NCBI GenBank assembly: GCA_026388545.1
Contig: JAPLJS010000114.1
Coordinates: 94,737-158,736 of the forward strand
Reading direction: 5' to 3'
Source: Deltaproteobacteria bacterium
GTDB taxonomy: Bacteria; Desulfobacterota; Syntrophia; Syntrophales; UBA2185
Length of the DNA: 64,000 nt
Shown: one piece after another, positions 38,295-57,614 of the stretch
Layout: every line of letters begins with the position of its first letter
How positions within the stretch are numbered: the stretch's first letter is position 1
Program-made: the position numbers and the translations under genes
The notes under the pieces: generated by a model
The model's input: the letters and a program-made list of their open reading frames with translations, nothing else
The model's database searches: none
What the model was told of the DNA's origin: nothing

Positions 38295-38350
38295 AAGAAG
38301 GAGAATTTCTAATAAAATAAAAAGATCTCGTAATGCATTTCTAAAGATTC

Positions 38351-39688
38351 ATGATTTCAGCGGAGGATAGAAAGAATATGACTTCTAAAAAGCCCAAGAG
38401 AAAAAAAGTATATGTGGCCATGAGTGCTGATCTGATCCACCCGGGCCATCTGAATATTATTTCCGTAGCCCGGCAGTATGGTGATGTGATTATCGGTCTT
38501 TTGACAGATAGCGCCATAGCAAGTTATAAACGCCTGCCTTATCTTTCTTTCGAACAGCGCAAAGTAATAGTAGAAAACATCGTTGGCGTTGCAGAAGTTA
38601 TTCCACAAGAAACTTTAGATTATGTTCCTAATCTATTGAAGATAAAGCCGCAATACGTTGTACATGGTGATGACTGGCGAACCGGAGTGCAACAAGAAAC
38701 GAGAAAGCGGGTCATCGAAACTCTTCAAAAATGGGGCGGCGAACTTATAGAGCCACCCTACACACCGGGAGTATCATCGACGAACCTAAGCAAAGCTGTA
38801 TGCGAAATTGGAACTACTCCTGATATCAGAGGGAAGCGCCTGAGACGGCTTCTCACAGCCAAACCATTGTCTCGTTTTCTTGAAGTACACAATGGTCTAT
38901 GCGGGTTGATTGTAGAAAATGTTTATATAAATAAAAATGATGTCCGTCACGAATTTGATGGCATGTGGATAAGCAGCCTTACCGATTCCACGGCTAAGGG
39001 TAAACCTGATATTGAGTGTGTCGATCTGACTTCCCGAACACGCACACTTAACGATATCTTAGAAGTGACAACCAAACCGATCATTTTTGACGGAGACACC
39101 GGCGGCATCGCTGAACATTTCGTGTTCATGGTTCGAACACTGGAGCGCTTAGGGGTTTCCGCCGTGATTATTGAAGATAAGATTGGCCTGAAAAGAAATT
39201 CACTCTTTGGTATCGAGGTACAACAACAGCAGGACAGTATAGAAAATTTTTCGCAAAAGATAAGTTTAGGAAAGCGGGCCCAGATTACTGATGACTTTAT
39301 GATTATTGCCCGTATCGAAAGTTTGATACTAAAAGCGGGGATTACCGACGCTGTTGAAAGGGCAAAGGCATATATAGACGCGGGCTGCGATGGTATAATG
39401 ATTCACAGCAGAGAAAAAACACCGGACGAAGTTTTGGAATTTTGCCGGCATTACAATAAATTAAAATCAAGAGTTCCTCTCGTTGTTATTCCGACCACTT
39501 ATTCTCAAGTTACCGAAAGAGAACTCGCCGAAGCTGGAGTAAGGATTGTTATTTATGCCAACCATATGTTGCGAAGCGCTTATCCCGGCATGCTCAAAGC
39601 GGCAAAGATAATCCTCGAGAGCGAGCGCGCCCTTGAAGCGGAAGCTTTGTGCATGCCTATAAATGAGATTATAAATCTGATTAAGTAA
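38351..39688 (+). CDS. pepM: Cytidylyltransferase-like domain fused to phosphoenolpyruvate mutase (PepM)
   Basis: N-terminal about 130 aa carry an HxGH motif ([10 protein letters not shown]) of TagD-type cytidylyltransferases. The C-terminal part is an ICL/PEPM fold with the PepM signature [10 protein letters not shown]. Confidence 0.88.
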
Positions 39689-39716
39689 AGGGTACTTTGA
39701 TGAGAGGAGACCCGGT

Positions 39717-40844
39717 ATGATCAAATGCAGTACATTTTATGAAATGCTGATAACCCGCGGCATTTCTTTTTTTACCGGTGTACCCGATTCCCTTCTCAAG
39801 GATTTTTGCGCCTATATAACCGATCATGTACCCGACAATCAGCATGTCATTGCCGCCAATGAAGGCGGCGCCGTCGCTCTGGCCGCCGGTCACTATCTGG
39901 CAACAGGCCATATCGGGCTTGTTTATATGCAGAATTCCGGACAGGGCAACGCCGTTAATCCATTAACCTCACTGGCTGATCCTGATGTTTACGGCATTCC
40001 CATACTTTTGTTGATCGGCTGGCGCGGCGAACCGGGAGTAAAGGACGAACCGCAACATGCCAAGCAGGGGAAAATTACACTGCAAATTTTGCAAACATTG
40101 GATATTCCATACCGCATCCTGCCAGAGAATGTTGAAGAAGCCGATCTCTGTTTAGAGGATTTGTTTGCGGAAATATCCACACATAAATGCCCTGCCGCCC
40201 TTATAGTAAAAAAGGGCGTTTTTGATTCCTATAAGTTAAAACAAACGGCAAAAGATATTTCACTTCTCTCTCGTGAATACGCCATACAGAAAATTGTCGA
40301 TTCGTTAAGGCCGACAGACATTCTTGTTTCAACTACCGGAATGATTTCCCGGGAACTTTACGAATATCGAGATGCGATTGACGGCAATCATAGCAGTGAC
40401 TTCCTTACGGTCGGATCCATGGGCCACGCCTCACAAATCGCCATGGGAATCGCCTTGGCAAAACCGGACAGACAGGTTTTTTGTCTCGACGGAGATGGGG
40501 CGGCTTTAATGCACTTAGGCGCCATGGCCATTATCGGATCACGAAACCTTAATAATTTTAAACATATCATTCTTAATAACGCCGCCCATGATTCGGTCGG
40601 CGGCCAGCCAACGGCAGGCAAAGACGTCGCCTTTACAAAGATAGCCATCGCCTGCGGCTATAAATCGACCTTGGTTGTGGAGTCACAGGAAGAACTCAGA
40701 GACCTGCTGCCGCCATTGCTGGCGACGCAAGGCCCTGCTCTGCTGGAAATTCGCGTAAGAAAAGGCGCGAGAGCAGATTTAGGCCGCCCGAAAACGACGC
40801 CACATGAAAATAAGGCGGCATTTATGGAATTCCTTTCGAAATGA
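39717..40844 (+). CDS. ppd: Phosphonopyruvate decarboxylase (TPP-dependent)
   Basis: 375 aa. TPP motif GDGAALMHLGAMA...NN. It immediately follows pepM, which is the classic pairing. Confidence 0.88.
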   Translation: MIKCSTFYEMLITRGISFFTGVPDSLLKDFCAYITDHVPDNQHVIAANEGGAVALAAGHYLATGHIGLVYMQNSGQGNAVNPLTSLADPDVYGIPILLLIGWRGEPGVKDEPQHAKQGKITLQILQTLDIPYRILPENVEEADLCLEDLFAEISTHKCPAALIVKKGVFDSYKLKQTAKDISLLSREYAIQKIVDSLRPTDILVSTTGMISRELYEYRDAIDGNHSSDFLTVGSMGHASQIAMGIALAKPDRQVFCLDGDGAALMHLGAMAIIGSRNLNNFKHIILNNAAHDSVGGQPTAGKDVAFTKIAIACGYKSTLVVESQEELRDLLPPLLATQGPALLEIRVRKGARADLGRPKTTPHENKAAFMEFLSK

Positions 40845-42010
40845 ATCAGCAAGAATATATCGGGTTTGACAGCATCAGTTACTTAGCGACGATCCTTTTA
40901 AAACTTTCTCCTAAAAATATTTTCCTCGTTACGGGCCGGCAATCCTTTGAGGTTTCGGGTGCAAAAAATATATTGGACCCTTTGCTCAAAGGCTTTTCAA
41001 TTGTACCTTACCCATATAATGAACCTAATCCAAAAATTGCAGATATTGAGCGCGGCTTGGAAACGTATAAGAAAGAAAAGCCGGATGTCGTTATTGCCGT
41101 CGGCGGCGGCAGTGTTATCGACACAGCCAAACTGATTAACTTCTTTGCTGCAAACGACATCAAACCGAAAGACTGGTTTAATGAAAAAAAACCTGAAATA
41201 AGGAAAAGCGCCCCTCTGATCGCTATCCCCACAACCTCAGGTTCCGGCAGCGAGGCAACGCATTTTGCTGTGCTCTATATCGGAAAAGAAAAACACTCCG
41301 TGGAGCATGAAACGATGCTTCCGGCTATTGCAATCATTGATCAGGCTTTCTCAATGAATTTGCCACCCTATATCACAGCATCTTCAGGGATGGACGCCCT
41401 ATCCCAGGCCATTGAATCATACTGGAGCATCCATGCCACAGAGCAATCTAAAAAATTGGCCGCAAGTGCAATCGAACTGATCTATCCCGGAATTATCGAC
41501 TGTGTAAATAATCCCACACCAGAGCACCGCCTGTCTATGGCACAGGGCGCCCATTTGGCCGGCAAAGCGATAAGATTAACCAAAACCACCGCCGTCCACG
41601 CCATTTCATATCCCATGACATCATACTTCGGCATACCTCACGGGCATGCATGCGGTTTGATTTTGCCCGGCATGTTTCATTTTATATCCGGCGTTACGGA
41701 AAACAGTCTCACAGATAAACGGGGCCGGGAATATGTGATTAAGACATTAAAAGAAATCGCCGTCTTTCTGGGTGAGAAGAATCATAAAAATGCACCAAAA
41801 AGACTTGAAATGTTGATGAAGGAAATCGGCCTGGAGACAAATTTGAACGCCCTTGGAATAAAATCGAATGATGATATAGAGACCATTATCACTCACGGCT
41901 TTAATCCCGATCGTGTCAAAAACAATCCCCGATATCTAAACAAAAGCGCTTTAAGACATATTTTGAATAAGGCCGCCGCAATGTCGGCCTTTGCAAACCC
42001 TCAAAGCTGA
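40841..42010 (+). CDS. Iron-containing alcohol dehydrogenase (probable phosphonoacetaldehyde reductase giving 2-hydroxyethylphosphonate)
   Basis: Fe-ADH motifs GGGSVIDTAK and the metal-binding His region (HAISYP...HGHACG). Overlaps the ppd stop by 4 nt. No AEP transaminase is present in the cluster. Confidence 0.75.
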   Translation: MNQQEYIGFDSISYLATILLKLSPKNIFLVTGRQSFEVSGAKNILDPLLKGFSIVPYPYNEPNPKIADIERGLETYKKEKPDVVIAVGGGSVIDTAKLINFFAANDIKPKDWFNEKKPEIRKSAPLIAIPTTSGSGSEATHFAVLYIGKEKHSVEHETMLPAIAIIDQAFSMNLPPYITASSGMDALSQAIESYWSIHATEQSKKLAASAIELIYPGIIDCVNNPTPEHRLSMAQGAHLAGKAIRLTKTTAVHAISYPMTSYFGIPHGHACGLILPGMFHFISGVTENSLTDKRGREYVIKTLKEIAVFLGEKNHKNAPKRLEMLMKEIGLETNLNALGIKSNDDIETIITHGFNPDRVKNNPRYLNKSALRHILNKAAAMSAFANPQS

Positions 42011-42013
42011 ACC

Positions 42014-43435
42014 ATGATCAGAAACACCCTCTTCATGTTTACATCGACTATTCTGCGCTTTATCAACGGCGTCCTGCTCTTTATCATCATGGCGCGTTTT
42101 TGGGGTCCTCAAACCTTCGGTGTTTTCATGTATCCGTTCACTCTGGCGGCCATCATCGTCATATTAGTTGACTACGGTTTCAATCTCCAACTGGTCAGGG
42201 ACGTAGGGAAAAAAACCCAGGAAGCACATAGGCTGACCTGTCAGGCGGTGGCGATAAAAACGATTTTAACCGCAATAGTAGCCGTTTTTGGCTTGCCGTT
42301 GATCCTTCTATTAAAGTCACTTGAGGGGTATCGCCTTATCCTTGGTTTGCTTCTATTCTCAAATATTCTGAATTCCTACGGCTTGCTTTTTAACTTGAGT
42401 TTTCGGGGTATGGGCCTGTTCGATAGAGAGGTGAAGACTGTATTTTGGTCAAGCATAGTTACTTTTCTCTTAGTCGGAGGGCTTGTATTATCTGGTCAGG
42501 GTCCTGAAGTCATCGCCATAGGATTTGTTCTTTCCAAGGCTTTTTTTCTGATTCTTTCTTGGGCGGTTTACCGGCATCTTATTGGCGGGACCAAGTTTAT
42601 ATATCCTAACCGACGTAGCGCGCTTACGGCGCTGAGTAGTGGATTCCCTTTTGCGGCCCATGTAGCTTTAGGCACACTTTATTTTTCCGTTGATACGATC
42701 ATTATTCAACACTTTCTCGGTGCAGAAAATGTCGGCATTTATCAGGCCGGATTGAGGATAATGGTCGGCGGATTGATATTGACTGATGTACTTTCCAACA
42801 TTTACCTGAGTCGTATGGCCAAAGACAGTTATGATCGCAAGGCATTGATCAGTCTGTCTACACGCATGACGCGCCATTGCTTGATGATAGGCGTGTTTGG
42901 CTTTATTTGTATGATTGGTTTCTCGGATCTGATTGTGAAATTAATTTATGGCAGTAATGGTTTCAGCAAGGTCATTCCTCTATTTCCTCTTTTTGGCATA
43001 GTTCTTCTATTGCGTTATTTAGGAGCTTCCTATGGTATTCTTTTGACGGTTGATAATCGCCAGGTTGTGCGTATGGTTGGTGTAGGTTTATCCGTTATCG
43101 TCAGTATCGCTCTCAACATTCTCTTGATTCCAAGATTCAATTTAAACGGCGCCCTCTTTGCGTCGATTATCACCCATGTTTTCTTGACGGCCATCTATAT
43201 CTTTTTCGCATGGCGGCAAGTTCAGAGTTGGCTTATAGAGAAGCGCTCATGGATTTTAATTTCAATTGCCGTTTTGACAGGATTGTTTCAACTGTTCATT
43301 ATTCCTGATCATAATATAATGCGTTACACAGTTATGACCGGCGCTCTTTTGTTTGTCGGTCTCATTGGCATAACCTCAACTGAATATTCTAACCTCGTGA
43401 AGCGCTTGCAAAGATATGCATCAAACGCTGCCTGA
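42014..43435 (+). CDS. Polysaccharide flippase (Wzx/MOP superfamily)
   Basis: 473 aa with about 12-14 predicted TM helices. Typical polysaccharide-biosynthesis-protein N-terminus. Confidence 0.8.
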   Translation: MIRNTLFMFTSTILRFINGVLLFIIMARFWGPQTFGVFMYPFTLAAIIVILVDYGFNLQLVRDVGKKTQEAHRLTCQAVAIKTILTAIVAVFGLPLILLLKSLEGYRLILGLLLFSNILNSYGLLFNLSFRGMGLFDREVKTVFWSSIVTFLLVGGLVLSGQGPEVIAIGFVLSKAFFLILSWAVYRHLIGGTKFIYPNRRSALTALSSGFPFAAHVALGTLYFSVDTIIIQHFLGAENVGIYQAGLRIMVGGLILTDVLSNIYLSRMAKDSYDRKALISLSTRMTRHCLMIGVFGFICMIGFSDLIVKLIYGSNGFSKVIPLFPLFGIVLLLRYLGASYGILLTVDNRQVVRMVGVGLSVIVSIALNILLIPRFNLNGALFASIITHVFLTAIYIFFAWRQVQSWLIEKRSWILISIAVLTGLFQLFIIPDHNIMRYTVMTGALLFVGLIGITSTEYSNLVKRLQRYASNAA

Positions 43436-43447: not shown

Positions 43448-44671
43448 GTGTACCAGAGAATCCGGGCGCTCATTATAAATCTGATTTCACTACCTCTTTA
43501 CTGGATTAGTTTTTTTACCCCGCGCAATAAAAATATCTGGGTATTCGGCGCATGGCTTGGCCGTAGTTACACGGACAACAGTAAATGGCTCTTTGAAAGT
43601 GTTTGTAAAAATGAGCCCCAAATCAGGGCAATCTGGCTGACCCGTGAACGTAAAGTTGTAAATGAAATGCACAGGTATGGGTTTGAAGTGTACATGATTA
43701 AGTCCTGGAAAGGCTACTGGCTTACCTGCCGGGCCGGTCTCGCGATAGCCTGTTGGGGTAACGCTGATGTAAACAGGATAGCTATTTCGCGAGCCAAGAA
43801 GCTCCAGTTATGGCATGGTTCACCCATGAAACAAATCGTAATGGATGACAAATATGCTCAGATAGATACTTCAAGCTTATTAGGATTATTGCAAAAGATT
43901 TGGCAGGCTTTTTTCCCGTTTACTGTGGAACGGTGGGATGTGGTCATCGCTTGCAGTGAAGTTTTCAAGAGATATATGGCAAGCGCTTTCGGGGTAAGCC
44001 CGCTGCAAGTCAAAGTCACCGGTTATCCAAGAAACGATGTTCTGCTTGATCCCAATCCACCGATTATTCCTTTTATTGAGGAACTCAAAAAGTCCCTTGT
44101 GGTTAAGTATGTGCTTATTTATGCACCAACCTTTCGAAATGATCCAAAAGATATGGACAAGTTGTTTCATACTTTCGAAGTGGAGAAGTTTGAAAGTTTT
44201 TTGACGGATCATGAGGCTGTTTTATTAATCAAGATGCATTACGTTTACCTTAATTCACCCCAAGTGATCAATTTGAAAGAGCGAATTTCGCGCATTTGTT
44301 GGCTTGATGAGAAGTCGGTTCCGGAGATCAATCCGTTACTTAATTTTACTGACATACTTATTACCGATTATTCCGGTGTATACTTCGATTACTTGCTTTT
44401 GGACAGGCCAGTGGTGTTCGCTCCCTTTGATCTTGAAAACTACCTTGCGGGCGATCGTGAAATGTATGAAGATTACAACCACGTCGCAATGGCCGGCCCA
44501 AAATGTCGAGATTGGAACGATGTAATGAAGGCCTGCCAAGAAATATTAAATGGCAATGATAAATGCCGCGTGGAGCGAAAGGCGGCGCAAAGAAAATACA
44601 ATAGCTTCGTTGATGCAAATAGTTGCTCACGAGTTATAGAGGTGGGGAAAAATATGGTTGGGATTCAATAG
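43448..44671 (+). CDS. CDP-glycerol glycerophosphotransferase (TagB/TagF) family protein
   Basis: GTG start. Motifs QLWHGSPMK, VTGYPRND, LIYAPTFRND and ITDYSGVYFDYLLLDRP are typical of TagF-family enzymes. Confidence 0.8.
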   Translation: MYQRIRALIINLISLPLYWISFFTPRNKNIWVFGAWLGRSYTDNSKWLFESVCKNEPQIRAIWLTRERKVVNEMHRYGFEVYMIKSWKGYWLTCRAGLAIACWGNADVNRIAISRAKKLQLWHGSPMKQIVMDDKYAQIDTSSLLGLLQKIWQAFFPFTVERWDVVIACSEVFKRYMASAFGVSPLQVKVTGYPRNDVLLDPNPPIIPFIEELKKSLVVKYVLIYAPTFRNDPKDMDKLFHTFEVEKFESFLTDHEAVLLIKMHYVYLNSPQVINLKERISRICWLDEKSVPEINPLLNFTDILITDYSGVYFDYLLLDRPVVFAPFDLENYLAGDREMYEDYNHVAMAGPKCRDWNDVMKACQEILNGNDKCRVERKAAQRKYNSFVDANSCSRVIEVGKNMVGIQ

Positions 44672-44684: not shown

Positions 44685-45659
44685 ATGAAAAAAATCAACA
44701 TATTAATGGCTACTTTTAATGGTGGCCGATATTTGAGCGAACAACTTGATAGCTTATTAGAACAGACGTATGAATACTGGACTCTTTATATTCGTGATGA
44801 CGGTTCGTCCGATGACTCAATGAAGATAGTTAAAAGTTACTCAAAAAGAGATAAACGTATTCAACTCTTACCATCTTCTGGTCAAAACGTTGGGGCATGC
44901 CAAAATTTTGCACAACTGATGGAAAATACAGACGGACCTTATGTGATGTTCTGTGATCAAGATGATATCTGGTTGCCTGATAAGACTGAAACAACATTGA
45001 AGGTTATGAAAGACAGTGAGAAGCGCTTTGGAACAGGTATGCCGATCTTGGTGCATACGGATTGCGCAGTTGTCAATTCATCTTGCCAAGTTATTCATCC
45101 ATCATTCATGCGTTATCAGAAGATGAATCACGTAGATGATAACCCTCTTCGAATCTTATTAACTCAAAATTTTGTTACAGGCTGCACTGTTATGATTAAT
45201 CGTGCGCTTCTATCAAAATGTCTGCCGGTACCAAATACTGCCTTGATGTACGATTGGTGGATAGCGCTGGTCGCTGCAGCACTTGGTAAATTAGTATTTA
45301 TTCCTCATTCAACACTCTTATATAGACAACATACTGATAATGTGGCAGGTGCTAAGAAAATTATCTCCAGGAGAAATTTGCGTCGCTTAGTCAATTTTGA
45401 AGAACTCGATAAATCGATGATTAAGCTAATGTTGCAGAATTGTGCTCTGTTGAAACACATAAATAGTCAAAATGATGTTAAAAATAATTATATGCTTGAA
45501 GAGTTTATATCATCAATAAAGACGAGAGGGACGGCCGCATTCACTTGTAGCCTCAAATATCGCATAGTAAAACAAGGGATTCTACGTAATTTACTTTTTT
45601 TCTTTCAACTAGCTAAGGGTTCATATACTCACGCAATACGTTCTGAATATACTAAATGA
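44685..45659 (+). CDS. Glycosyltransferase family 2
   Basis: INILMATFNGGRYLSEQLDSLLEQTY...IRDDGSSDDS and DQDDIW (DxD motif). Confidence 0.85.
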   Translation: MKKINILMATFNGGRYLSEQLDSLLEQTYEYWTLYIRDDGSSDDSMKIVKSYSKRDKRIQLLPSSGQNVGACQNFAQLMENTDGPYVMFCDQDDIWLPDKTETTLKVMKDSEKRFGTGMPILVHTDCAVVNSSCQVIHPSFMRYQKMNHVDDNPLRILLTQNFVTGCTVMINRALLSKCLPVPNTALMYDWWIALVAAALGKLVFIPHSTLLYRQHTDNVAGAKKIISRRNLRRLVNFEELDKSMIKLMLQNCALLKHINSQNDVKNNYMLEEFISSIKTRGTAAFTCSLKYRIVKQGILRNLLFFFQLAKGSYTHAIRSEYTK

Positions 45660-47005
45660 TAAAGAGAATAATATTAAGTATTCCCTTTTTATTTCTTGTA
45701 GAATTAATTTTAGGAGGGCCTGGTTTTTGGAAAATAACTGAAGCAATTACTGTTAGAAAGATTTTATTTATTTTTTCCTTTATTATCCTGTATTCATATG
45801 CGTTTATTAGGGGGCGATGGCGCATCACAATATTTGATTTTGGTTTGCTGATATTCATATTTGCTAATATACTTATATGGATTTTCTGGATTCCTATCAT
45901 ACATAATACTGAGTTAAGTTGGGCATTTGGTGATGGCGGGTCGATTTTTATGTTGTTGCTTTATTTCCCATTGGTTGCTTTAATGCGGACAGCAAATATT
46001 AATTGGGGGATCGTTAGGGTTATATTTGTTGTTTTGGCATTTATTGTTGCTCTTATTCATGTTGCGATATGGGCTGTCGTATATATTCTACCAGATTTCG
46101 GCACAACAATGGGAATGATCGCCAAAATCTTTTTCTGTGCAGAAGATTATAGAGGCATATATATTGGTTATATGCCGGACGGCTACTATAGGGTTATGTG
46201 GATTTCCTCACTATATTTAATTCCAGCATTATTCATCGCCCTACAATTAGTTAGGCGTAATCAGTTATATTTTATCGTAATATTTTTTATATTATTTGCT
46301 ATTATATTTACCTACACGCGTTCTTTTTGGTTGGGTGTAGCTATAGGTTTTCTCTCTTTGAGCATGATTCCTTTAGTTCGCTTGGCTAATTCTTGTTGTG
46401 TAGGACGTATTAGTTTTTCTGGCCCTTCGATCGCATTCAGTAGTTTTTTTATCCTTATGGGCGTAATTTTACTTTTTTGGAATTATGACCCAATAGCCCC
46501 TATTTTTTCACGCTTTTTTAGCCTGTTTGCAGGCGATGAGGGCGTTCAGATCAGGCTAAATCAAAGTCAGGCATTGATGGAAACATGGTCTAATTATCCG
46601 CTCTTTGGTACCGGTTTCGGCGGTGTTGCGAAACACTTGATACGCTCAGAAAGTGCGGCATTTTCTTACGAGATGTTTCTTCCGATGCTCTTAATGAAGA
46701 TTGGGCTTTGTGGTATATTTTTGTGGGCTGTTACCGTCTTTAATCTTTTTTTTAATGCGTGGAGAATAGCAAAAATGACAAAGGGGAGTCATTGGCTAAG
46801 ATATTGGTTGGCAAGTTGGCTAGCGTTTATAATTCCGTGCATGACTAATCCATATTTATTCAATTTTGTAGGTATGTCTATCGTGTTGTTTTTACTTTTA
46901 GAAATGGAATGGCAAAAACTTGCAAAACTAGCAGAAAAACAGAAGCTTCATGAATGCACAAATATTCCGTTAGATGCTTCTCAACAGCCTGCAATTTCTC
47001 TCTAA
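45656..47005 (+). CDS. O-antigen polymerase/ligase-like (Wzy-type) integral membrane protein
   Basis: About 12 TM helices with a periplasmic loop (...FTYTRSFWLG...). Overlaps the GT2 stop. AT-rich. Confidence 0.6.
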   Translation: MIKRIILSIPFLFLVELILGGPGFWKITEAITVRKILFIFSFIILYSYAFIRGRWRITIFDFGLLIFIFANILIWIFWIPIIHNTELSWAFGDGGSIFMLLLYFPLVALMRTANINWGIVRVIFVVLAFIVALIHVAIWAVVYILPDFGTTMGMIAKIFFCAEDYRGIYIGYMPDGYYRVMWISSLYLIPALFIALQLVRRNQLYFIVIFFILFAIIFTYTRSFWLGVAIGFLSLSMIPLVRLANSCCVGRISFSGPSIAFSSFFILMGVILLFWNYDPIAPIFSRFFSLFAGDEGVQIRLNQSQALMETWSNYPLFGTGFGGVAKHLIRSESAAFSYEMFLPMLLMKIGLCGIFLWAVTVFNLFFNAWRIAKMTKGSHWLRYWLASWLAFIIPCMTNPYLFNFVGMSIVLFLLLEMEWQKLAKLAEKQKLHECTNIPLDASQQPAISL

Positions 47006-47010
47006 AATAA

Positions 47011-48783
47011 TTGAAAATGTTAGTAAATAGATACGGAATAATGGTTGTTATCCTTTTCCTGTTCATGCCACAAAATGGCTATAGCATGCTATTAGTTCAG
47101 GACAGGAAGCCTCAGGCCACCATTATCATTGCTGAAGACTGTCCCGACTCAGTTTGGTTTGCAGCGTCGGAATTTCAAAAATATGTGCAGAAGACAACCG
47201 GCGCGTTGCTTTCCATAAAACATAAGATGCCTGTCACAGATAAGTCAACAGGGTACGTATTGATAGGCGAGAGCGATTATACTCGACAAAAAGGTATAAA
47301 TGTCGGACTCAAAAAACCCGATGAATTCCGAATAGTCAGTCGCGACAATTGGCTGGTAATTATGGGAAAGGATTATAAAGGAAAGCCAATTGTTGGTATG
47401 AGGAGTCCTTGGCGTAGTAAAGAGGTATATAATGCAAAGTTGAAGCTTAATGCATTCGGAGAAACAGGCACGTTGTATGGCGTCTATTATTTCTTGCATC
47501 GCTTCTGTGGTGTACGGTGGTATATGCCGGGAGAGTTAGGGGAAGTAATCCAGCCCAAAAACACTTTGCAAGTTTCCAATGTTGACATTAAAAAAGCTCC
47601 TGATTTTGAATATCGATATGTATGGCTGTGTGATTTCGCTGATGATGTAGATGCCGCCCTTTGGTACAAAAGAACTGGTTTCGGCGCGGCCGCACCTGTA
47701 CAAATAATAGACTCATTCCATTTTTTCCTGAAGTACAAAGATACGCATCCTGAATACTTTGCCTTAATCAATGGACGTCGTGATTTTACTGACTTATCTT
47801 CAAAACGAGGTGGCGGCAATCTTGACCTATCCAATGGAGATGTATTCAAACAATGGATTGCAGATATAAGAAAATATTTTGATGAGCATCCGGAGCAAAG
47901 GTTCTATCCGCTAGCACCCAATGATGGTATGTTCAAAATATGTGAATGCAAAGACTGTCAATCTCAGATTAACGAAAAAATGGGCGAGGAGGGTAAGTAT
48001 TCAGATTATATCTGGGGTTTTATAGACAGGGTGGCGAAAGAGATATACAAATCGCATCCTGATAAGTTTATAGGCTGCATGGCATACGAACATTACCAAT
48101 ATCCCCCCAGCAAACTGAAAAGGTTAAATCCCAATGTTGCTGTGATGATCGCTAAATGGAGGATGTTCTATAATGATCCCGAATACCACAAAAAGATGGA
48201 CCGCTTTATAGAAGGCTGGCGCGTGAAAAGTAACCATATCTACATATGGGAATACTATTTAAATTCATGGGGAGTTTTGCGAGGGCACCCTGTATTTTTC
48301 CCGCATACCATAGCCGACGACCTTAGATACTTAAAGAAATTCAGCAAGGGTGAGTTTATTGAAGCTGAAACTTGGCAAGGATCTGAACCACAAAAGATGG
48401 GCTTCTATGGTATGTCACACCTGAATCTATACCTCACTGGGAAGCTTTTCTGGAATGTCAACGAAAACCTGGATGATATTTTAAACGAGTACTACAGAGT
48501 GTTCTATGGTCCAGCAAAAGAGGAAATGAGGATGTTTTGGAATTTGGCCGAGGCGGCTTGGATGAAGAAAATTAACATAAAAGAAAAAAGCTTTACACGC
48601 TTTCTAAGGTCTAAATCTCTTATAGATAGTCGATATGACAAAGAGACATTGGGGCAAATGCACTCTCTGCTCCAGAACGGGTTGCACAAGTTACATGAAG
48701 GATCAATTTATCACAAAAGAGTTAAATTGATTTATTCTGAAATATTTGACGATAGGCTTTTCCCCATGGTTCAGTCATGGTAA
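47011..48783 (+). CDS. DUF4838-like secreted protein (glycoside-hydrolase-like)
   Basis: Signal peptide. The N-terminal ATIIIAEDCPDSVWFAASEFQKYVQK pattern and overall length resemble DUF4838 proteins. Low certainty. Confidence 0.5.
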   Translation: MKMLVNRYGIMVVILFLFMPQNGYSMLLVQDRKPQATIIIAEDCPDSVWFAASEFQKYVQKTTGALLSIKHKMPVTDKSTGYVLIGESDYTRQKGINVGLKKPDEFRIVSRDNWLVIMGKDYKGKPIVGMRSPWRSKEVYNAKLKLNAFGETGTLYGVYYFLHRFCGVRWYMPGELGEVIQPKNTLQVSNVDIKKAPDFEYRYVWLCDFADDVDAALWYKRTGFGAAAPVQIIDSFHFFLKYKDTHPEYFALINGRRDFTDLSSKRGGGNLDLSNGDVFKQWIADIRKYFDEHPEQRFYPLAPNDGMFKICECKDCQSQINEKMGEEGKYSDYIWGFIDRVAKEIYKSHPDKFIGCMAYEHYQYPPSKLKRLNPNVAVMIAKWRMFYNDPEYHKKMDRFIEGWRVKSNHIYIWEYYLNSWGVLRGHPVFFPHTIADDLRYLKKFSKGEFIEAETWQGSEPQKMGFYGMSHLNLYLTGKLFWNVNENLDDILNEYYRVFYGPAKEEMRMFWNLAEAAWMKKINIKEKSFTRFLRSKSLIDSRYDKETLGQMHSLLQNGLHKLHEGSIYHKRVKLIYSEIFDDRLFPMVQSW

Positions 48784-49272: not shown

Positions 49273-50662
49273 GAGAAACCTTTGCACAACTCCTGTTAAA
49301 ATTTGAGTAGAAAAATAGAGAAAAAGTGATTTAACATATTAATATCACTTGACATATTACGATTTTCATGATAATTTTCGGTCAAATTCAACGTTGAAGG
49401 AGACCGCCATGGCTTTCAAAGAATACGATCGAAAACCGACTTTCCTCGATATGGAACTCCAGAGAGCATTCGGACAGGCACAATCACGGACCCAACAATC
49501 ACTTACGGAAATCGATAAGATCATCAACTGGACATCCATAGAGAAGATCGTAACAGAGAACTATCCTGTGGGGCAATCGGAATACGGGAACAAAGCATAC
49601 CCGCCCATGTTGCTGTTGAAAGCCAGCCTGATCCAGAAGTGGTTCGGGATCCACTCCGATCCGGAGCTGGAGATCCAGATCAATGATCGTTTATCCTTCA
49701 AGGCCTTCATCGGTTTGCCCTTCAGCGAACCTTCTCCTGACCATTCCATCATCTGCCGGTTCAGGGAACGGATTGGGAAAGATACCCTGGAGAAGATACA
49801 CCATGAGCTTCTGGAGCAGTTCAGTGCCCTGGGTTTCTCCCTTGAATCCGGCATGGCCGTAGATGCCAGGGTGATCAGATCAGCAAGCCGTCCTGTGAGT
49901 ACAAACAATCTCGATGCCCTGAGAGAGAAGAGGAAGGCCAGGGCAAAGATGAGGAATAAGACACAGAAGGCCATGCGCTTCCAGAGGGATATTGACTCCG
50001 ACTGGACGGTGAAGAACAAGCAGCCCGTTTTCGGAATGAAGGAGCATGCCTCCGTTGATGTGGAAAGCGGTCTGGTTTTATCCACCTGTGTATTCAAGGC
50101 CTCTGAGCATGACACGACCTATTTCTCCTATGTGGTGACGAAGGGCATTCATGGTAACGGTCTTCCTGAAACGGTTTATGCCGACAAGGGCTACTGTGGA
50201 AAAGCCAATCGGGAATTCCTGAGCATGAACGGCATCGGTGACGGAATCATGAGAAAGAACCAGATCAATGCATCTCTGACGGAAACCGAAATCCACAGAA
50301 ACAAAACCATTGCCAAGGTCAGGTACAAGATTGAGCAATATTTTGGCTTAACCCATAAATATCATGGCGCGGGAAAAGCGAGGTTCACTACCCTTCTCAA
50401 GGAGAATTGGGATCATCTCTGCGGAGCGATGGCCTTCAATATCAAGCGTGTTGTTCTGAATCTGAGAAAACGGAAGATGATTGCCGCAACGTAGGGGGAA
50501 GCATCCCCCATGCCCCCTCCCCGGGGTTATCCGGGGGAAACCAAGATTGTCAAAGAGCGTTTTTCGGTATCAAAACTTAGAAACCGATAAAAAATCTGAA
50601 AAAGTGAGCATCCAAACAGAGGAAAATTTAATATCGAAATTGTGCAAAGGTCTTTTATAGGA
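49273..50662 (+). mobile_element. Intact IS5-family insertion sequence
   Basis: Imperfect terminal inverted repeats: GAGAAACCTTTGCACAACTCC (left) versus AAAAGACCTTTGCACAATTTC (reverse complement of the right end). Single DDE transposase gene. Confidence 0.8.
49409..50494 (+). CDS. IS5-family DDE transposase (InsH-like, N-terminal DUF772-type domain)
   Basis: YPPMLLLKASLIQKWFGIHSDPELE..., ...AVDARVIRSA..., ...YADKGYCG..., ...VRYKIEQYFG... ATG at 49409 after GAAGGAG. Confidence 0.9.
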   Translation: MAFKEYDRKPTFLDMELQRAFGQAQSRTQQSLTEIDKIINWTSIEKIVTENYPVGQSEYGNKAYPPMLLLKASLIQKWFGIHSDPELEIQINDRLSFKAFIGLPFSEPSPDHSIICRFRERIGKDTLEKIHHELLEQFSALGFSLESGMAVDARVIRSASRPVSTNNLDALREKRKARAKMRNKTQKAMRFQRDIDSDWTVKNKQPVFGMKEHASVDVESGLVLSTCVFKASEHDTTYFSYVVTKGIHGNGLPETVYADKGYCGKANREFLSMNGIGDGIMRKNQINASLTETEIHRNKTIAKVRYKIEQYFGLTHKYHGAGKARFTTLLKENWDHLCGAMAFNIKRVVLNLRKRKMIAAT

Positions 50663-50752
50663 AAAGCGCTTTTTTTCTACCTTTATGAATTTACACAAAA
50701 GATTTTACACTGCTGAATAATTTTAACAAACATGTCAAAGTAAAATAAAAAA

Positions 50753-51556
50753 ATGGAGGTTGCCATGGAATTTAAACAGTTTACTTTAATTGTTTTAAGA
50801 AAACTACATCTTTTGCCTATTGTTACAAGAGGAATTTTATTTCAAAAGGTTTTGATGTGTCACGCAAAAAATAATGCTTATTCCAAAGCACATAATATAA
50901 AAATACCACCCTACTCACTCATGATAGATGCTTATGGTCATTGCATGCTAAAAGAATATCACGAAACAGGATTAATACACGCCAATTTCATTAACGATAT
51001 TATTTTGCAGCATAAACCTGCTGAAAACATTACAGTATGCGAGTGGGGTTGCGGCGCAGCTAGAATATTACAACACCTTAAATCAATTAATAGTAACATT
51101 ATTGAGCTTATAGGAACAGATTATAATCCTAAAACAATACTCTGGTGCAAAAATAATATAAATAACATAACTTTTGTTAAAAATGATTTAAAGCCTCCAT
51201 TTCTTTTAAAAGATAAATCTATAGATGTATTATATTGTATATCTGTATTTACTCATTTATCCGAAGTTCAAAACCACTTATGGATAAACGAAATAAAAAG
51301 AGTCTTAAAGGAAAACGGTCTATTTATTGGTTCCTTTCATGGAGAAAAAACCTTCCATAAATTAACACAAAATGAACTTAAACAAATACAAAAAAGTGGT
51401 ATTGTTGAAAGAGGTAATGTTAAAGAGGGTTCCGGATTTTATGTGGCATACCATAGTGATAATTTTATCAAAAACAAATTATTAAATTATATTAAAAATA
51501 TTAATAAAATTAAGTGCGATTTTATGCTTCAAGATGTATGGTGTGCCATGAAATAG
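50753..51556 (+). CDS. Class I SAM-dependent methyltransferase
   Basis: Motif I VCEWGCGAARIL and post-I GTDYN. Very AT-rich compared with its neighbours. Confidence 0.7.
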   Translation: MEVAMEFKQFTLIVLRKLHLLPIVTRGILFQKVLMCHAKNNAYSKAHNIKIPPYSLMIDAYGHCMLKEYHETGLIHANFINDIILQHKPAENITVCEWGCGAARILQHLKSINSNIIELIGTDYNPKTILWCKNNINNITFVKNDLKPPFLLKDKSIDVLYCISVFTHLSEVQNHLWINEIKRVLKENGLFIGSFHGEKTFHKLTQNELKQIQKSGIVERGNVKEGSGFYVAYHSDNFIKNKLLNYIKNINKIKCDFMLQDVWCAMK

Positions 51557-51559
51557 CAC

Positions 51560-51910
51560 ACCATCAGAGGTTAAGCGGTTGACAACTGAGCAGTACAGTG
51601 CAGTACCGATGGAAGATGTGATCCGGAAAGTTAATGAAGTCGTCAGAGGATGGGTAGGTTACTTTCGATATGGCAATTGTACAAAGGCCCTAACAACTCT
51701 GAAAAGATACCCGGTCTATAGGATTCGAATATGCCTGCGCCGGAAACACCATTACCGTAGTTTTGGATATAAGGCGTGTCCGGACAGATATTATTTTGAT
51801 TCCTTTAGGTCTATACGAAGTTCCAACCAAGGCTCCTTGGTCTCAGTCGGCGAAATCATCCGGATGAAGAACATCGGAAAGCCGTGTGCGGGAGAATCGC
51901 ATGCACGGTT
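51560..51910 (+). mobile_element. 5'-truncated group II intron remnant (maturase C-terminal fragment + domain V)
   Basis: The translation VIRKVNEVVRGWVGYFRYGN is an X/maturase-domain motif. AGCCGUGUGCGGGAGAAUCGCAUGCACGGUU (51880-51910) folds as domain V with an AGC triad and a 2-nt bulge. Confidence 0.6.
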
Positions 51911-53821
51911 GTGTGTCCAGCGAAGGCTGGTCTGTTCAGCAGGAGTCAAACCTGCCAGGGTAAAAGCCAGAGCCCTGTAGCTTGGATAGCAAGGTGGAGG
52001 GAAACCAAAATCTTGGAGCCTATTGACACACCCATCAAAAGGAAGGGAGCGAGTTACCAGGCCGTAACGAGAGTGAACGCAGAGGTGGCCTCGAGAATTC
52101 GAAGTTCCGGAAGCCGAGCCAGCAACCGTAGGGCGAAGGCAAGATGAACAGACGAAAACTGGATGATACGTTTGATTCGTTCCGGCGGGGTGATAGCGAC
52201 AGCATGGTAACAAGGACAAACCAAGCAACTGGAGAAACCCTCCTCGTCCCAGGGAGAAATTTCTGGAGCAAGGTAGGTCTTATAACCGGCAACACCGGGA
52301 AGTGGATCGAAGGCGAGAGGGTGGCGGATGGGTTCGTAAGAGCGATGAACTGGAGTAATATCCGGGGAGCAAAGGAGCCCTGCTGTTAATAATCTTCTGA
52401 CAACACTGGGAGGTAAGGGCGAGATGATAAAGGCGCCCATCAGTTTACAGAACCTGAGGAGGAAGATATACTTAAAGGCGAAGTCTGAAAAGGCATGGCG
52501 ATTCTGGGGACTGTATGTTCATGTCTGTAAGATGGAGACGCTCCGAGAGGCCTACAAGATGGCCAAGAAGAATAATGGTGCACCGGGAATAGACGGGGTA
52601 ACATTTGAGGCCATTGAGGAATCGGGTCTGGAAGCTTTTCTTGAGCAGATAAGAGAAGAACTGGTCTCAGGCACGTATCGACCGATGAGGAATCGAAGGA
52701 AGGAGATACCCAAAGACAAAAATAAGGTCAGGATTTTGGGGATTCCTTGCATTCGAGACCGTGTGGTTCAAGGAGCATTGAAGCTAATCTTTGAACCGAT
52801 CTTTGAAGCCGATTTCCAGGAAGGGTCATATGGATATCGACCCAAGCGGACAGCCCATGCGGCTGTAGGACGTGTGGCAGAAGCAGTGGTGAAAAACAAA
52901 ACACGGGTCATCGATGTAGACCTTAAGGCCTACTTTGATAATGTTCGGCATGATATCATTCTTAGGAAGATTGCCGAACGAGTGGACGATGGCGATGTGA
53001 TGCGACTGCTGAAGCTGATTCTGGAAGCTAATGGTAAGCGGGGAGTACCACAAGGGGGAGTAATTTCGCCATTGCTCAGTAATCTCTATCTCAACGAAGT
53101 GGATAAGATGCTGGAACGGGCAAAAGAAGTCACCCGTCATGGCAAATATACATACATTGAGTATGCAAGATTTGCCGATGATCTGGTTATCCTTGTAGAC
53201 GGCTTCCGGAAATGGAATTGGCTTGAAAAGGCGGCCTATCGAAGACTTCTTGAGGAGTTGAACAAGCTTGACGTTCAAGTAAATCAGGAGAAGACTCGGA
53301 TAGTGGATCTTACTAAAGACGAGACATTCAGTTTTCTTGGGTTTGACTTTAGGCGGATGAAAACCCGCCAGGGCAAGTGGGGAGTGCGAATCACACCGAG
53401 AATGAAGGCACGAACTACTCTGCTGCGAAAACTTAAAGAAGTGTTTCGCCGCCACAACTCGCAACCCGTAGATAGGGTCATATACCTGATTAATCCAATT
53501 CTCAGAGGATGGGTTAACTATTTTAGGGTTGGACATGCCAGTGGATGTTTTGGATACATCAAGGACTGGGTGGAGAAGAAGATTCGGCGACATCAGATGC
53601 GGGCAAGGAAACGCTGTGGTTTCGGCTGGAACAGGTGGAATAGGGACTGGTTCTATAAGAACCTTGGGGTATATAATGATTACAAGGTCAGATATTATCA
53701 GGCCTGAAAGCGCTGCCAGACTGATAGGTCACATAAACCTTTAGAAGAAGTTAACAGGAAAGCGTAGTGCGGGAAATCCGCACGCTACGTTTGACGTGGC
53801 GGGGGCTGGAAACGTACTGAT
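51911..53821 (+). mobile_element. Full-length group II intron (boundaries approximate)
   Basis: GUGUG at 51911, then about 510 nt of structured 5' RNA and the RT/maturase ORF. Domain V is AGCGUAGUGCGGGAAAUCCGCACGCUACGUU at 53761-53792. A possible domain VI with a bulged A near 53816 ends ...GAU. Confidence 0.65.
52424..53707 (+). CDS. Group II intron reverse transcriptase/maturase
   Basis: RT blocks 0-7 including YADD (YARFADDLVILV). X domain LINPILRGWVNYFRVGHAS. Confidence 0.92.
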   Translation: MIKAPISLQNLRRKIYLKAKSEKAWRFWGLYVHVCKMETLREAYKMAKKNNGAPGIDGVTFEAIEESGLEAFLEQIREELVSGTYRPMRNRRKEIPKDKNKVRILGIPCIRDRVVQGALKLIFEPIFEADFQEGSYGYRPKRTAHAAVGRVAEAVVKNKTRVIDVDLKAYFDNVRHDIILRKIAERVDDGDVMRLLKLILEANGKRGVPQGGVISPLLSNLYLNEVDKMLERAKEVTRHGKYTYIEYARFADDLVILVDGFRKWNWLEKAAYRRLLEELNKLDVQVNQEKTRIVDLTKDETFSFLGFDFRRMKTRQGKWGVRITPRMKARTTLLRKLKEVFRRHNSQPVDRVIYLINPILRGWVNYFRVGHASGCFGYIKDWVEKKIRRHQMRARKRCGFGWNRWNRDWFYKNLGVYNDYKVRYYQA

Positions 53822-53943: not shown

Positions 53944-55170
53944 AAACCCAAAAAGATAACCGTATGGGTTATCTCCCCCTTCTCGGATCCCACGAGCCCG
54001 GATTCAGCGGACAGATATCGCTACATTTGCCAAGAGCTTACCAAAAAGGGAGCATCCGTTTGCCAATTCATCAGCATGTTCGACCACGCACGGAAGCAAC
54101 ATCGCCGATTAGACATGCTTCCTTGGCGTTGTGTCGCGGTCGTCGAGCCTGGATATAGAAGTAATGTGAGCTTCCGGCGGTTGCTCTCACATGCCGTGTT
54201 TGATATATTGATATTATTTTATTTCATTCGCGAAAGCTTGAGACGGGGACGACCCGACACGATTTTTTCTGTATTACCGCACAACGGGGCAGCTTGTGTT
54301 GCCACCATATTTGCCAGGGTAATTGGCGCGCGGTTTATCGTGGATATTCACGACACTTGGCCGGAATCGATCCTCAGCGTTACAAAACTTAATTTTATAA
54401 CAAAAGTAGGCTACTACGTATGGAAAGCCTGTGCTGATTTTCCTCTTCGCTACGCAGATTATGTGTTTAGTGAATCGGTTCAATATGCAGAACGCGCAAA
54501 TTCTATTCGGAAATCCAGCGAACAGTCTCGTGCTCAAGCAATTTATCTTGGTGGTGATCCTGATTATTATCGTAGCATCCTCCCTGCGGAACGGTTACCA
54601 GAAAAACTGCAGAGTGCAAAGTTTATTGTGGCCTATGCAGGAACCCTTGGAGAGAACTACGATCTCGATTGTTTGATTGATGCATTTGCCAATTTCGAAA
54701 GTGAATGTCCGGAAGCGGGCTTGCTGATACTCGGTGGTGGAGAAAGAGAGATGGCTATCAGAACGAAGATCGCTGACGTATCCATAAAAGCATGGGTTTC
54801 CGGAAGGCTTCCGTATCGCATACTTCTTGGTTATCTCAAACGTTCTCATATCGGGCTCAATTGTTTCAAGGCGGGAGGAAATGTTGCCTATTCCTATAAA
54901 CTAAATGATTATCTTCTTTTAGGGTTGCCAGTCATAAATAGCTTGGAAGGAGAATCAGCGCATCTTATCTCCACGCAAGACCTTGGAGTGAATTACCAAG
55001 CAGGGAATCCTGAGAGTTTGTTGAATGCCTTGAGGGCTTGTTACAATCGTTTTTTGGCGAACGGGCAATCTTGGACAGAGAAAGTTGTGGACTTTTCTTC
55101 ACAGATGTTAGACCGTAAAGTGAACTATAGGCCATTAATTGAAAGATGTTTATACTCAAAAAGTAAATAA
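53944..55170 (+). CDS. Glycosyltransferase family 4 (WbuB-like), 5'-disrupted: no start codon for the conserved N-terminus
   Basis: GT4 homology (KKITVWVISPFSDP...DIHDTWPES...) starts at about 53944. The frame is open from 53878, but there is no ATG, GTG or TTG before the ATG at 54076 used by the track ORF. Confidence 0.65.
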   Translation, partial: KPKKITVWVISPFSDPTSPDSADRYRYICQELTKKGASVCQFISMFDHARKQHRRLDMLPWRCVAVVEPGYRSNVSFRRLLSHAVFDILILFYFIRESLRRGRPDTIFSVLPHNGAACVATIFARVIGARFIVDIHDTWPESILSVTKLNFITKVGYYVWKACADFPLRYADYVFSESVQYAERANSIRKSSEQSRAQAIYLGGDPDYYRSILPAERLPEKLQSAKFIVAYAGTLGENYDLDCLIDAFANFESECPEAGLLILGGGEREMAIRTKIADVSIKAWVSGRLPYRILLGYLKRSHIGLNCFKAGGNVAYSYKLNDYLLLGLPVINSLEGESAHLISTQDLGVNYQAGNPESLLNALRACYNRFLANGQSWTEKVVDFSSQMLDRKVNYRPLIERCLYSKSK

Positions 55171-55303
55171 TATTGTGTCTTTCCGGTAAGGCTGCGTGAA
55201 AAATTTGGGGCGGGCTGGTATGATCGGTATGTCGTTCAATCAGGGCGTACAACAGTTTGAAACGCCCATGTCAGAGCTTTTGTGAAAAGCGGCCTAAATT
55301 AAT

Positions 55304-55450
55304 ATGATGGCAAGCAAAAGGGTTCTCGATCTGGTTTTGGTGATTCCGGGTCTTGCGGTGTTACTTCCTTTTATGCTTTGAATCGCTTTGGTGGTTCGCT
55401 TCAAGCTCGGGTCGCCGGTTCTTTTCAGCCAGGACAGTGAGAAAAATACG
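55304..55450 (+). pseudogene. Sugar transferase (PGT) N-terminal remnant with in-frame stop
   Basis: My translation reads MMASKRVLDLVLVIPGLAVLLPFML*IALVVRFKLGSPVLFSQD. Similarity is lost after that. Confidence 0.6.
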
Positions 55451-55576
55451 CAAAACTGATGTTGAACAGGTTGCCATGTTTAATCAAACCTCTATGGACA
55501 GGTGGTTTCTGACCACATTGGGGTCAGGCTTCATAGTCAAACTCTATGCATCGATCGGTTCTGAAAGTGGTGATTT

Positions 55577-56347: not shown

Positions 56348-56387
56348 ATTGTACATACGGCCTGCGCAAAGATAAGAAAGGCTACGG

Positions 56388-57551: not shown

Positions 57552-57555
57552 AATA

Positions 57556-57604
57556 CTGGATTCCCGTCTGCACGGGAATGACATAGAAAAAGACGGGAAT
57601 GACA
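57556..57604. repeat. REP-like element (CTGGATTCCCGTCTGCACGGGAATGACA + partial repeat)
   Basis: Read directly from the sequence. See the family listed at 15785. Confidence 0.6.
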
Positions 57605-57614
57605 TAGAGGTTCG

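Follow-up and report, generated by a model that had tools for sequence, protein, structure and literature searches.

Which phosphonate is made by a gene cassette at the head of a polysaccharide-type locus, and which enzyme might carry it onto the glycan? The question is raised by a stretch of 64,000 nucleotides from Deltaproteobacteria bacterium (Syntrophales, UBA2185; GenBank assembly GCA_026388545.1, contig JAPLJS010000114.1, positions 94,737 to 158,736 of the forward strand), hereafter called the window, which is the part of the genome visible to us. Three open reading frames (ORFs) on the same strand occupy positions 38351-42010 and encode a fusion of a cytidylyltransferase (CTase) domain with a phosphoenolpyruvate (PEP) mutase (CT-PepM), a phosphonopyruvate decarboxylase (Ppd) and a group III alcohol dehydrogenase (ADH). 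A first-pass annotation, made from the sequence alone, had read them as a route to 2-hydroxyethylphosphonate (2-HEP or HEP) rather than to 2-aminoethylphosphonate (2-AEP or AEP). Our analysis of this organism, which works from sequence, makes it probable that the operon decorates a Wzx/Wzy-dependent surface polysaccharide with HEP. A TagF-like gene lying just beyond the segment covered by that annotation is the likely transferase. The argument is carried by four genes:

38351..39688, + strand: Fom1-type cytidylyltransferase and PEP mutase, 445 amino acids (aa) (PF01467, PF13714, TIGR02320)
39717..40844, + strand: phosphonopyruvate decarboxylase (Ppd/AepY), thiamine diphosphate (TPP)-dependent (TIGR03297, Pfam TPP_enzyme_N and TPP_enzyme_C)
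40841..42010, + strand: group III (Fe/Zn) ADH, predicted phosphonoacetaldehyde reductase making 2-HEP (PF00465, PF25137)
43448..44671, + strand: TagF-like polyol-phosphate transferase (PF04464)

A predicted route from phosphoenolpyruvate to a CMP-activated phosphonate

The first gene probably starts at 38378 rather than at 38351. The ATG at 38378 (MTSKKPK...) is preceded by GGAGGA 10 nt upstream, and a gene caller places the start at the same position on an identical contig (L001; loci used for comparison are numbered in this way). The PEP mutase domain (PF13714) covers aa 164-421 of this ORF (E 3.7e-52), and for TIGR02320, the PEP mutase equivalog, the whole protein scores 399 bits where 319.55 are needed. 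The motif EDKxxxxxNS, which distinguishes Ppm from the isocitrate lyase family's other members (PMC6697681), had been called in the first-pass annotation, and we found it as a ten-residue match at aa 275-284 (nt 39173-39202). The TPP motif reported for the decarboxylase is present as well, as a GDG-x25-NN motif at aa 259-288 (nt 40491-40580) of the second ORF, which passes the Ppd equivalog TIGR03297 (507 bits; cutoff 312.5). The predicted steps from PEP to phosphonopyruvate (PnPy) and on to phosphonoacetaldehyde (PnAA) are secure by equivalog-level family membership. The E-values of the domain matches in the cassette leave no room for chance.

Whether HEP or AEP is the product turns on the third ORF. 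As had been proposed, it encodes an Fe-dependent ADH (PF00465, E 1.3e-40, together with PF25137), and it is translationally coupled to Ppd by a 4-nt overlap, with the stop of one and the start of the other sharing the ATGA at 40841-44. The identical protein carries the NCBI name "phosphonoacetaldehyde reductase". We assessed the ADH by comparing its residues with the published description of PhpC and by statistics on gene context. In PhpC, D191, H195, H260 and H274 are the predicted metal ligands and K157, T256, Y264 and R349 the HEP-binding residues; enzymes of the PhpC type share as little as 26.8% identity (PMC13576164). We found that K151, D185, Q189, T249, H253, Y257 and H267 of the window ADH correspond with the same spacing to K157, D191, H195, T256, H260, Y264 and H274 of PhpC, and that these seven residues are invariant in 17 family members which are 50-77% identical to the window ADH. 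Q189 stands for the second His of PhpC, as it does in a related Zn-dependent sulfoacetaldehyde reductase with an Asp/Gln/His/His metal site (PMC13576164), and the top PDB match of the window ADH, 6JKO, has a metal site of this composition. R358 is the probable counterpart of R349. The same residues align in four other cassette-linked ADH lineages, whereas E. coli FucO differs, having Leu at position 249, His at 257 and Cys at 358. Since no PsrA/PhpC homologue for the numbering was found among the best 40 matches in the plasmid collection, the TIGR03405-like ADH of L092 was used instead, and it matches the PhpC numbering at a constant offset of 8.

The gene context was examined by scanning the contigs of one genome per GTDB species with the window ADH as the query. 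The scan found 334 stretches encoding ADH relatives, and the counts of related loci given here and below refer to the best 80 of them. Ppd lies within the fetched flanks of the ADH relative in 71 of the 80, usually directly upstream, and in some of the relatives a PF01467 CTase and the ADH form a single fused protein. Our Pfam scan of the window covered 38 of its larger ORFs, with small and overlapping ORFs covered in part. It detected no class V AEP transaminase among the 38, the only aminotransferase being a DegT-type sugar aminotransferase, and no gene of the HEPD/MpnS type or of the radical S-adenosylmethionine (SAM) family is present in the locus. Reduction of phosphonoacetaldehyde to 2-HEP by the ADH is a well supported prediction. 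A catabolic role of the ADH in the degradation of HEP was also considered and was rejected, given that PepM and Ppd are present while phnX, phnY and phnA are absent.

The first ORF had also been credited with an N-terminal cytidylyltransferase-like domain of the HxGH type. We found HPGH at aa 30-33 (nt 38438-38449) within a match to PF01467 CTP_transf_like at aa 26-146 (E 1.3e-12; 48.5 bits against a cutoff of 21), and the domain extends over approximately aa 16-153. Over 138 aa it is 64.5% identical (E 1.4e-58) to the CyTase domain of Fom1 (PDB 5X3D), the characterised HEP cytidylyltransferase that forms CMP-HEP from HEP and CTP (PMC6697681). The domain fails the TagD equivalog TIGR01518 (45.8 bits; cutoff 165.4) and is only ~31% identical to a true TagD, and the Pfam scan gave no PF12804 (LicC/PntC-type) match on the CT-PepM protein. 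Of the two classes that had been considered for it, the domain belongs by its hidden Markov model (HMM) matches to the TagD/Fom1 fold and not to the LicC/PntC-like enzymes. Moreover, the CT domain is fused to PepM and stands alongside the ADH in 45 of the 80 related loci, which supports HEP as its substrate. The domain probably activates HEP as CMP-HEP, a step that is well supported because of the strong homology to Fom1. The earlier proposal of a CMP-activated 2-HEP, and not 2-AEP, is consistent with all of these observations, namely the identity to Fom1, the PhpC residues, the NCBI name and the lack of an AEP transaminase in the scanned ORFs.

A TagF-like candidate for the transfer step

In the searchable literature, the transfer of a CMP-activated phosphonate onto a glycan is not assigned to any enzyme, and we found there neither a link between PF04464 and phosphonates nor a report of phosphonate transfer by this family. 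To judge from its gene context and a sequence signature, the TagF-like gene at 43448-44671 encodes a likely CMP-HEP transferase. Its product matches PF04464 with E 3.1e-63 (214 bits; cutoff 22), and H123 and H264 align to the catalytic H444 and H584 of TagF. The AlphaFold2 (AF2) model has a pLDDT of 86.7, and Foldseek aligns it to TagF 3L7I-M with a TM score of ~0.70. The protein fails the TarF, TagB and TarL equivalogs (NF041712, 137 vs 550 bits; NF041711, 33 vs 500 bits; NF041713, 95 vs 1000 bits). It consists of the GT-B domain only, without the extra N-terminal domain that is associated with polymerases in a study of TarL (PMC10901376), and is therefore likely to add a single unit or a few. 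The absence of this domain also makes it much less likely, and in our view rather improbable, that the enzyme builds a short oligo(HEP) chain on the free hydroxyl of HEP.

The only cytidylyltransferase near the TagF-like gene is the Fom1-type domain. No TagD or other cytidylyltransferase was found near this gene in the window or near its counterparts in L022, L026, L075 and L079, and the scanned parts of the window contain no TagD, TarI/TarJ or other CDP-alcohol-forming gene. Relatives of the TagF-like protein stand behind a CT-PepM cassette in L086 (82% identical) and in L091 and L092 (57%). In L088-90 and L093, a TagF-like protein of 63% identity and a Wzx of 69% identity are found behind a TagD of 132 aa (in L088 the three genes span 7970-11221), and the stand-alone CTase of L088 passes TIGR01518 with 195.1 bits. 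The window Wzx, whose gene keeps company with the TagF-like gene between loci, is 62-80% identical to the flippases that adjoin the TagF-like genes of L086, L088 and L091. The donor module, either TagD or CT-PepM/Ppd/ADH, appears from these comparisons to have been swapped behind a conserved Wzx/TagF-like pair. When the 80 cassette loci were searched by HMM, ten proved to have TagF-like genes and four LicD. The cassette-linked TagF-like genes span Planctomycetota, bacteria of the candidate phyla radiation (CPR), Asgard archaea and Bacteroidota, and include that of Segatella copri.

For the signature, 87 TagF-like (PF04464) sequences were compared, grouped by donor module. The donor-site motifs of the window protein are WHGSPM (nt 43811-43828) and TDYSG (nt 44363-44377), in which M127 and G310 are the deviating residues. 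After the invariant TDYS, Gly follows in 9 of the 13 HEP-linked members, and also in S. copri, whereas Ser follows in 20 of the 21 TagD-linked members and in authentic TagF (Fisher p ~1e-4). After WHGxP, Met or Ile is found in 11 of 13 HEP-linked members and Leu in 16 of 21 TagD-linked ones (Fisher p ~1e-3); both p values ignore shared ancestry, being uncorrected for phylogeny. In a neighbour-joining tree without support values, the TagD-linked L088 is nested among Gly-type HEP-linked sequences, although it has Ser. The 'PL' motif of TagF forms the glycerol pocket, and in TarL the dipole of helix alpha17 faces the donor pyrophosphate (PMC10901376). In the AF2 model of the TagF-like protein, the helix 310-316 starts exactly at G310, and we infer that it is the equivalent of alpha17; on this model, the Gly/Ser and Met/Leu positions plausibly line the donor site. 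A wider proposal would be that the PF04464 subgroup in which TDYS is followed by Gly and WHGxP by Met or Ile is the missing phosphonyl transferase of HEP-glycans, using CMP-HEP in place of CDP-glycerol, and to this we give an even chance.

The glycan locus, a proposed pathway and its rivals

The cassette heads a compact operon of eight genes (38351-48783), all of which are intact and tightly spaced or overlapping. The remaining features of the locus are as follows:

42014..43435, + strand: Wzx-type oligosaccharide flippase (PF01943, PF13440)
44685..45659, + strand: family 2 glycosyltransferase (GT2) (PF00535, E 3.6e-21)
45656..47005, + strand: Wzy-like polymerase or ligase-type membrane protein, a weak match (PF04932, 26.7 bits, below the cutoff of 31.7)
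47011..48783, + strand: DUF4838 protein (PF16126, E 3.5e-49)
49349-50494, + strand: DDE transposase of an insertion sequence (IS), with DUF772, in the mobile-element interruption at 49349..53707
50753-51556, + strand: class I SAM methyltransferase, within the same interruption
51579-51980, + strand: group II intron maturase fragment, within the interruption
52424-53707, + strand: complete group II intron reverse transcriptase/maturase, within the interruption
54076-55170, + strand: GT4-like transferase, in the remainder of the glycan locus (54076..58310)
55577-56347, + strand: hexapeptide acyltransferase, in the remainder
56388-57551, + strand: DegT-type sugar aminotransferase, in the remainder
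57615-58310, + strand: initiating Bac_transf sugar-phosphate transferase, at the end of the glycan locus

The first-pass annotation had placed the cassette inside an O-antigen-like locus, and the Wzx, GT2, GT4-like and Bac_transf matches agree with this, the Wzy match being weak. The slot of the Wzy-like gene is also filled in L086. By its gene content, the locus is of the Wzx/Wzy surface-polysaccharide type, among which O-antigen, capsule and exopolysaccharide are indistinguishable here. The window also encodes, outside the locus, a GT9 heptosyltransferase and secretin/type II secretion proteins, as fits a diderm, and the NCBI entries identical to the ADH and to the TagF-like protein bear the label 'MAG: Deltaproteobacteria bacterium' rather than that of a Bacteroidete. 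In a scan for promoters and terminators, the counts lay under the shuffle expectation, and the lone plausible -35/-10 pair, at 38289-38318, is no evidence of a promoter.

The GC content is 37-46% across 38-52 kb and 53-60% just upstream, and this difference suggests that the locus was acquired by transfer. The IS element and the group II intron split the locus, with the insertions falling between genes. Copies of a DUF772/DDE transposase are also scattered through a related Syntrophales locus, L003. Just upstream of the low-GC island, at 33422-36826, the window encodes a multicopper-oxidase-like ORF of 1134 aa with ~60% GC, which adjoins AAA/DUF4143 and AbiEii genes and is apparently unrelated to the phosphonate cassette. 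A DUF4838 protein of ~590-630 aa ends the HEP/TagF-like operon both in the window and in L086 (14431-16320), with 25% identity between the two; it may process or anchor the polymer.

We propose the following pathway. The PepM domain would isomerise PEP to phosphonopyruvate, and Ppd would turn this into phosphonoacetaldehyde, drawing the unfavourable equilibrium of the mutase forward. The coupled Zn/Fe ADH would then reduce phosphonoacetaldehyde to HEP, and the Fom1-type domain would join HEP and CTP to CMP-HEP, the C-P counterpart of CDP-glycerol and other CDP-alcohols. Both of these predictions draw on strong homology to enzymes already characterised and on active-site residues that are conserved. 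With H123 of the TagF-like protein acting as the base, a hydroxyl of the lipid-linked repeat unit would attack the phosphorus of the phosphonate, so that CMP would be released and HEP would remain in a phosphonoester linkage. We infer this transfer from gene context and the sequence signature. Finally, Wzx would flip the decorated unit and the Wzy-like protein would polymerise it, as is generic for such loci.

The observations that weigh against this pathway concern the transferase, the reductase and the state of the locus. As the main rival, it is conceivable, though unlikely, that CMP-HEP is made while the TagF-like protein is an ordinary glycerol-phosphate transferase that uses CDP-glycerol from a TagD elsewhere in the genome; HEP would then be attached by a LicD-type or unrecognised transferase, or be exported as a small molecule. 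The protein does belong to PF04464, among curated families it comes nearest to TarF, a glycerol-phosphate transferase, and its relative of 63% identity adjoins a true TagD. In L002, a close relative of the cassette, a LicD-family protein occupies the slot after Wzx, and Fulvitalea carries LicD and not a TagF-like gene as well, therefore the transferase slot is not fixed. The signature has exceptions on both sides: Ser is retained in four HEP-linked members from Promethearchaeota, and Gly occurs next to a TagD-like gene in L114 and L126. However, the scan of the window, as far as it reached, turned up no CDP-alcohol-forming gene, and the TagF-like gene belongs to the same operon as the ADH, 1.4 kb downstream of it. 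Moreover, distant phyla show the same pairing with the HEP cassette, again with no TagD, and the donor-site signature tracks the cassette.

We consider it very unlikely that the ADH is not a phosphonoacetaldehyde reductase and that 2-AEP or another phosphonate is formed by a transaminase or tailoring enzymes outside the window. The best NCBIfam match of the ADH is TIGR03405 (Phn_Fe-ADH/PsrA), the only curated model for a phosphonoacetaldehyde reductase/HEP dehydrogenase of the PhpC type, and it reaches 198.9 bits where 423.7 are required. This model was built on the proteobacterial PsrA/degradative clade. The cassette-linked ADHs split into several deep lineages with 25-41% identity between them, the window ADH being only 28-41% identical to the others. 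In addition, PF01467-Ppm fusions are known from AEP clusters, occurring with an AEP transaminase in Bacteroides fragilis (PMC8942020), and therefore likeness to Fom1 is no proof of HEP specificity. A control locus of this AEP type was sought among the plasmid matches and viral contigs, where none was found; the plasmid collection gave only two CT-fused matches, both accompanied by the reductase, and the sole viral locus without the ADH (L192) lacks a transaminase too. With 64 kb of the genome visible, AEP enzymes could lie outside. Against this reading stand the ATGA coupling to Ppd, the synteny with Ppd in the related loci, the retained PhpC substrate residues, the NCBI name and the CTase-ADH fusions among the relatives, and the sole aminotransferase found in the window is of the DegT sugar type. 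A recently acquired and now inactive passenger in a low-GC island, making no phosphonoglycan at present, is hardly to be expected. It would be in keeping with the GC step, with the DDE transposase, maturase fragment and intron reverse transcriptase between the two halves of the locus, and with the Bacteroidota-type nearest relatives of several genes (DUF4838, a Paludibacter ADH), and the split leaves current expression of the whole pathway uncertain. Nevertheless, the eight genes of the operon are intact, the downstream glycan genes are intact ORFs, and the insertions lie between genes and never within one. Coupling, synteny and intact ORFs make these last two explanations less likely, and HEP decoration of the polysaccharide is the reading that we favour.

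Distribution and comparison with known systems

A cassette of this kind in a Gram-negative anaerobe had been called unusual in the first-pass annotation, which our searches do not bear out. Besides the 334 stretches with ADH relatives, PepM is found in 67 of the 80 related loci, and the compact order CT-PepM/Ppd/ADH is common to half of them (40/80). The bacterial sources include Syntrophales, Pirellulales and other Planctomycetota, Omnitrophota, Latescibacterota, Myxococcota, Bacteroidota and Patescibacteria, and the archaeal ones Woese-, Nano- and Pacearchaeota and Promethearchaeota. PF01467-Ppm fusions account for 23.6% of all Ppm proteins (PMC6697681), and ten PhpC-containing gene-cluster families have been inventoried, including those of the Gram-negatives Helicobacter cinaedi and Campylobacter jejuni (PMC8942020). 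The arrangement is also annotated by RefSeq in S. copri. The related statement that HEP-decorated glycans come mainly from actinomycetes still applies to structurally proven products and does not apply to the gene arrangement, which is widespread. To our knowledge, structurally proven HEP-glycans are confined to two actinomycetes and marine dissolved organic matter. The cassette is ordinary at the genomic level and already annotated, while structural proof of its product stays rare.

Relatives of CT-PepM or of the CT domain occur in 31 IMG/VR contigs, of which 21 encode the full CT-PepM fusion and ~20 also show Ppd and a distant Fe-ADH match. Several other IMG/VR contigs (in the set L175-L195) pair a stand-alone Fom1-like CTase with LicD. 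A surface modification of the HEP type thus seems to be encoded by phages or giant viruses.

Two variants of the cassette were observed. In one, CT-PepM is followed directly by the Fe-ADH, with no Ppd in the fetched flanks (L086 3603-6084, L048, L050, L080, L189); the sources are a JGI metagenome contig, a Myxococcota metagenome-assembled genome (MAG), a MAG labelled Methanosarcinales, a Nanoarchaeia MAG and a viral contig. The JGI metagenome locus (L086) is the one whose Wzx and TagF-like proteins are 80% and 82% identical to those of the window. Either Ppd is encoded elsewhere in these genomes, or the ADH reduces phosphonopyruvate itself and yields phosphonolactate, in which case the pathway would branch at a point not described before. 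In the other variant (L004 4574-9903, L005 2564-5360), a PF01467 CTase-ADH fusion of 512 aa, with an ADH 57% identical to that of the window, is part of a polysaccharide locus. Its neighbours are a second PF01467 CTase, a PF12804 nucleotidyltransferase, a B12-binding radical-SAM protein (Fom3-like?) and methyltransferases. These two loci may represent a route to a C-methylated HEP derivative on a glycan, perhaps 2-hydroxypropylphosphonate.

HEP esters are among the main phosphonates of marine high-molecular-weight organic matter, and their producers are poorly known. The breadth of the cassette over bacteria, archaea and viral contigs fits this abundance. The cassette of the window itself adds little, being one more case of a widespread and annotated route to surface HEP. 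What is new is the nomination of a TagF-like subgroup for the unassigned phosphonate-transfer step, and of S. copri DSM 18205 as a culturable organism in which it could be tested. If the proposal is true, HEP-decorated glycans could be predicted from genomes by a sequence marker, also for a major bacterium of the human gut, and a C-P-linked, phosphatase-resistant 'teichoic-acid-like' substituent would be present on the surface glycans of diderms, CPR bacteria and archaea.

The fosfomycin cluster of Streptomyces wedmorensis (Fom1/Fom2/FomC) contains the same PF01467 CyTase-PEP mutase fusion as the window, and its chemistry runs likewise from PEP through PnPy, PnAA and HEP to CMP-HEP (PMC6697681). 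In fosfomycin biosynthesis, CMP-HEP is transient; Fom3, a B12 radical-SAM enzyme, C-methylates it before it is hydrolysed. The window locus, by contrast, has no radical-SAM, FomD-type or epoxidase gene and lies among glycan genes that include a flippase, a polymerase candidate and a TagF-like transferase. Given this setting, CMP-HEP is presumably a donor for surface decoration and not a step towards an antibiotic.

A precedent for HEP on a glycan reportedly comes from a phosphonoglycan study of a Glycomyces sp., in which pepM, ppd and an ADH gene lie in a polysaccharide cluster and HEP is esterified to sugar hydroxyls of the exopolysaccharide. The same actinomycete phosphonoglycans are said to have yielded the 2-HEP mono(2,3-dihydroxypropyl) ester, which hints at glycerol chemistry. 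Those actinomycetes are Gram-positive, whereas the window comes from a diderm MAG with Wzx/Wzy machinery.

With the Pnt pathway of AEP, the window shares the logic of converting a phosphonate into a CMP conjugate and placing it on a surface glycan, and in both cases the CTase is commonly fused to Ppm (PMC6697681). The enzymes differ. PntC belongs to PF12804 (LicC-like) and prefers AEP, whereas the window domain belongs to PF01467; an AEP transaminase and a LicD-like transferase stand in the Pnt pathway where the window has a reductase and a PF04464 candidate.

The cultured gut anaerobe S. copri DSM 18205 (NZ_CP085933.1; L174 8299-16424), which is the type strain of its species, has the same cassette in a capsule/O-antigen-type locus. 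RefSeq lists aepX, aepY, phosphonoacetaldehyde reductase, a CDP-glycerol glycerophosphotransferase family protein, O-antigen polymerase, flippase and glycosyltransferases. Its Ppm is a triple fusion of 669 aa (PF12804, PF01467 and Ppm), unlike that of the window, and its TagF-like protein shares DYSG and has WHGNPI. Plasmid pFA2 of Fulvitalea axinellae (NZ_AP025316.1) carries aepX, aepY, phosphonoacetaldehyde reductase and LicD. We found no product reported for either organism in the searchable literature, and no mention of phosphonates in S. copri. The identities between the window and these two organisms are 52-63% for PepM, 34-41% for the ADH and 26% for the TagF-like protein.

TagF, TarF and TagB share with the window protein the GT-B fold, both catalytic histidines and the 'P-L-type' loop for a small polyol. 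TagF-like enzymes are not new to Gram-negative bacteria, since Cps3D and Bcs3 are already known from capsule loci (PMC10901376, PMC5974469). The window protein differs from the TagF family in that no partner TagD was found nearby and in two donor-site residues, TDYS being followed by Gly in place of Ser and WHGxP by Met in place of Leu. If these differences reflect the use of CMP-HEP, the enzymology of teichoic acids would extend to phosphonate donors.

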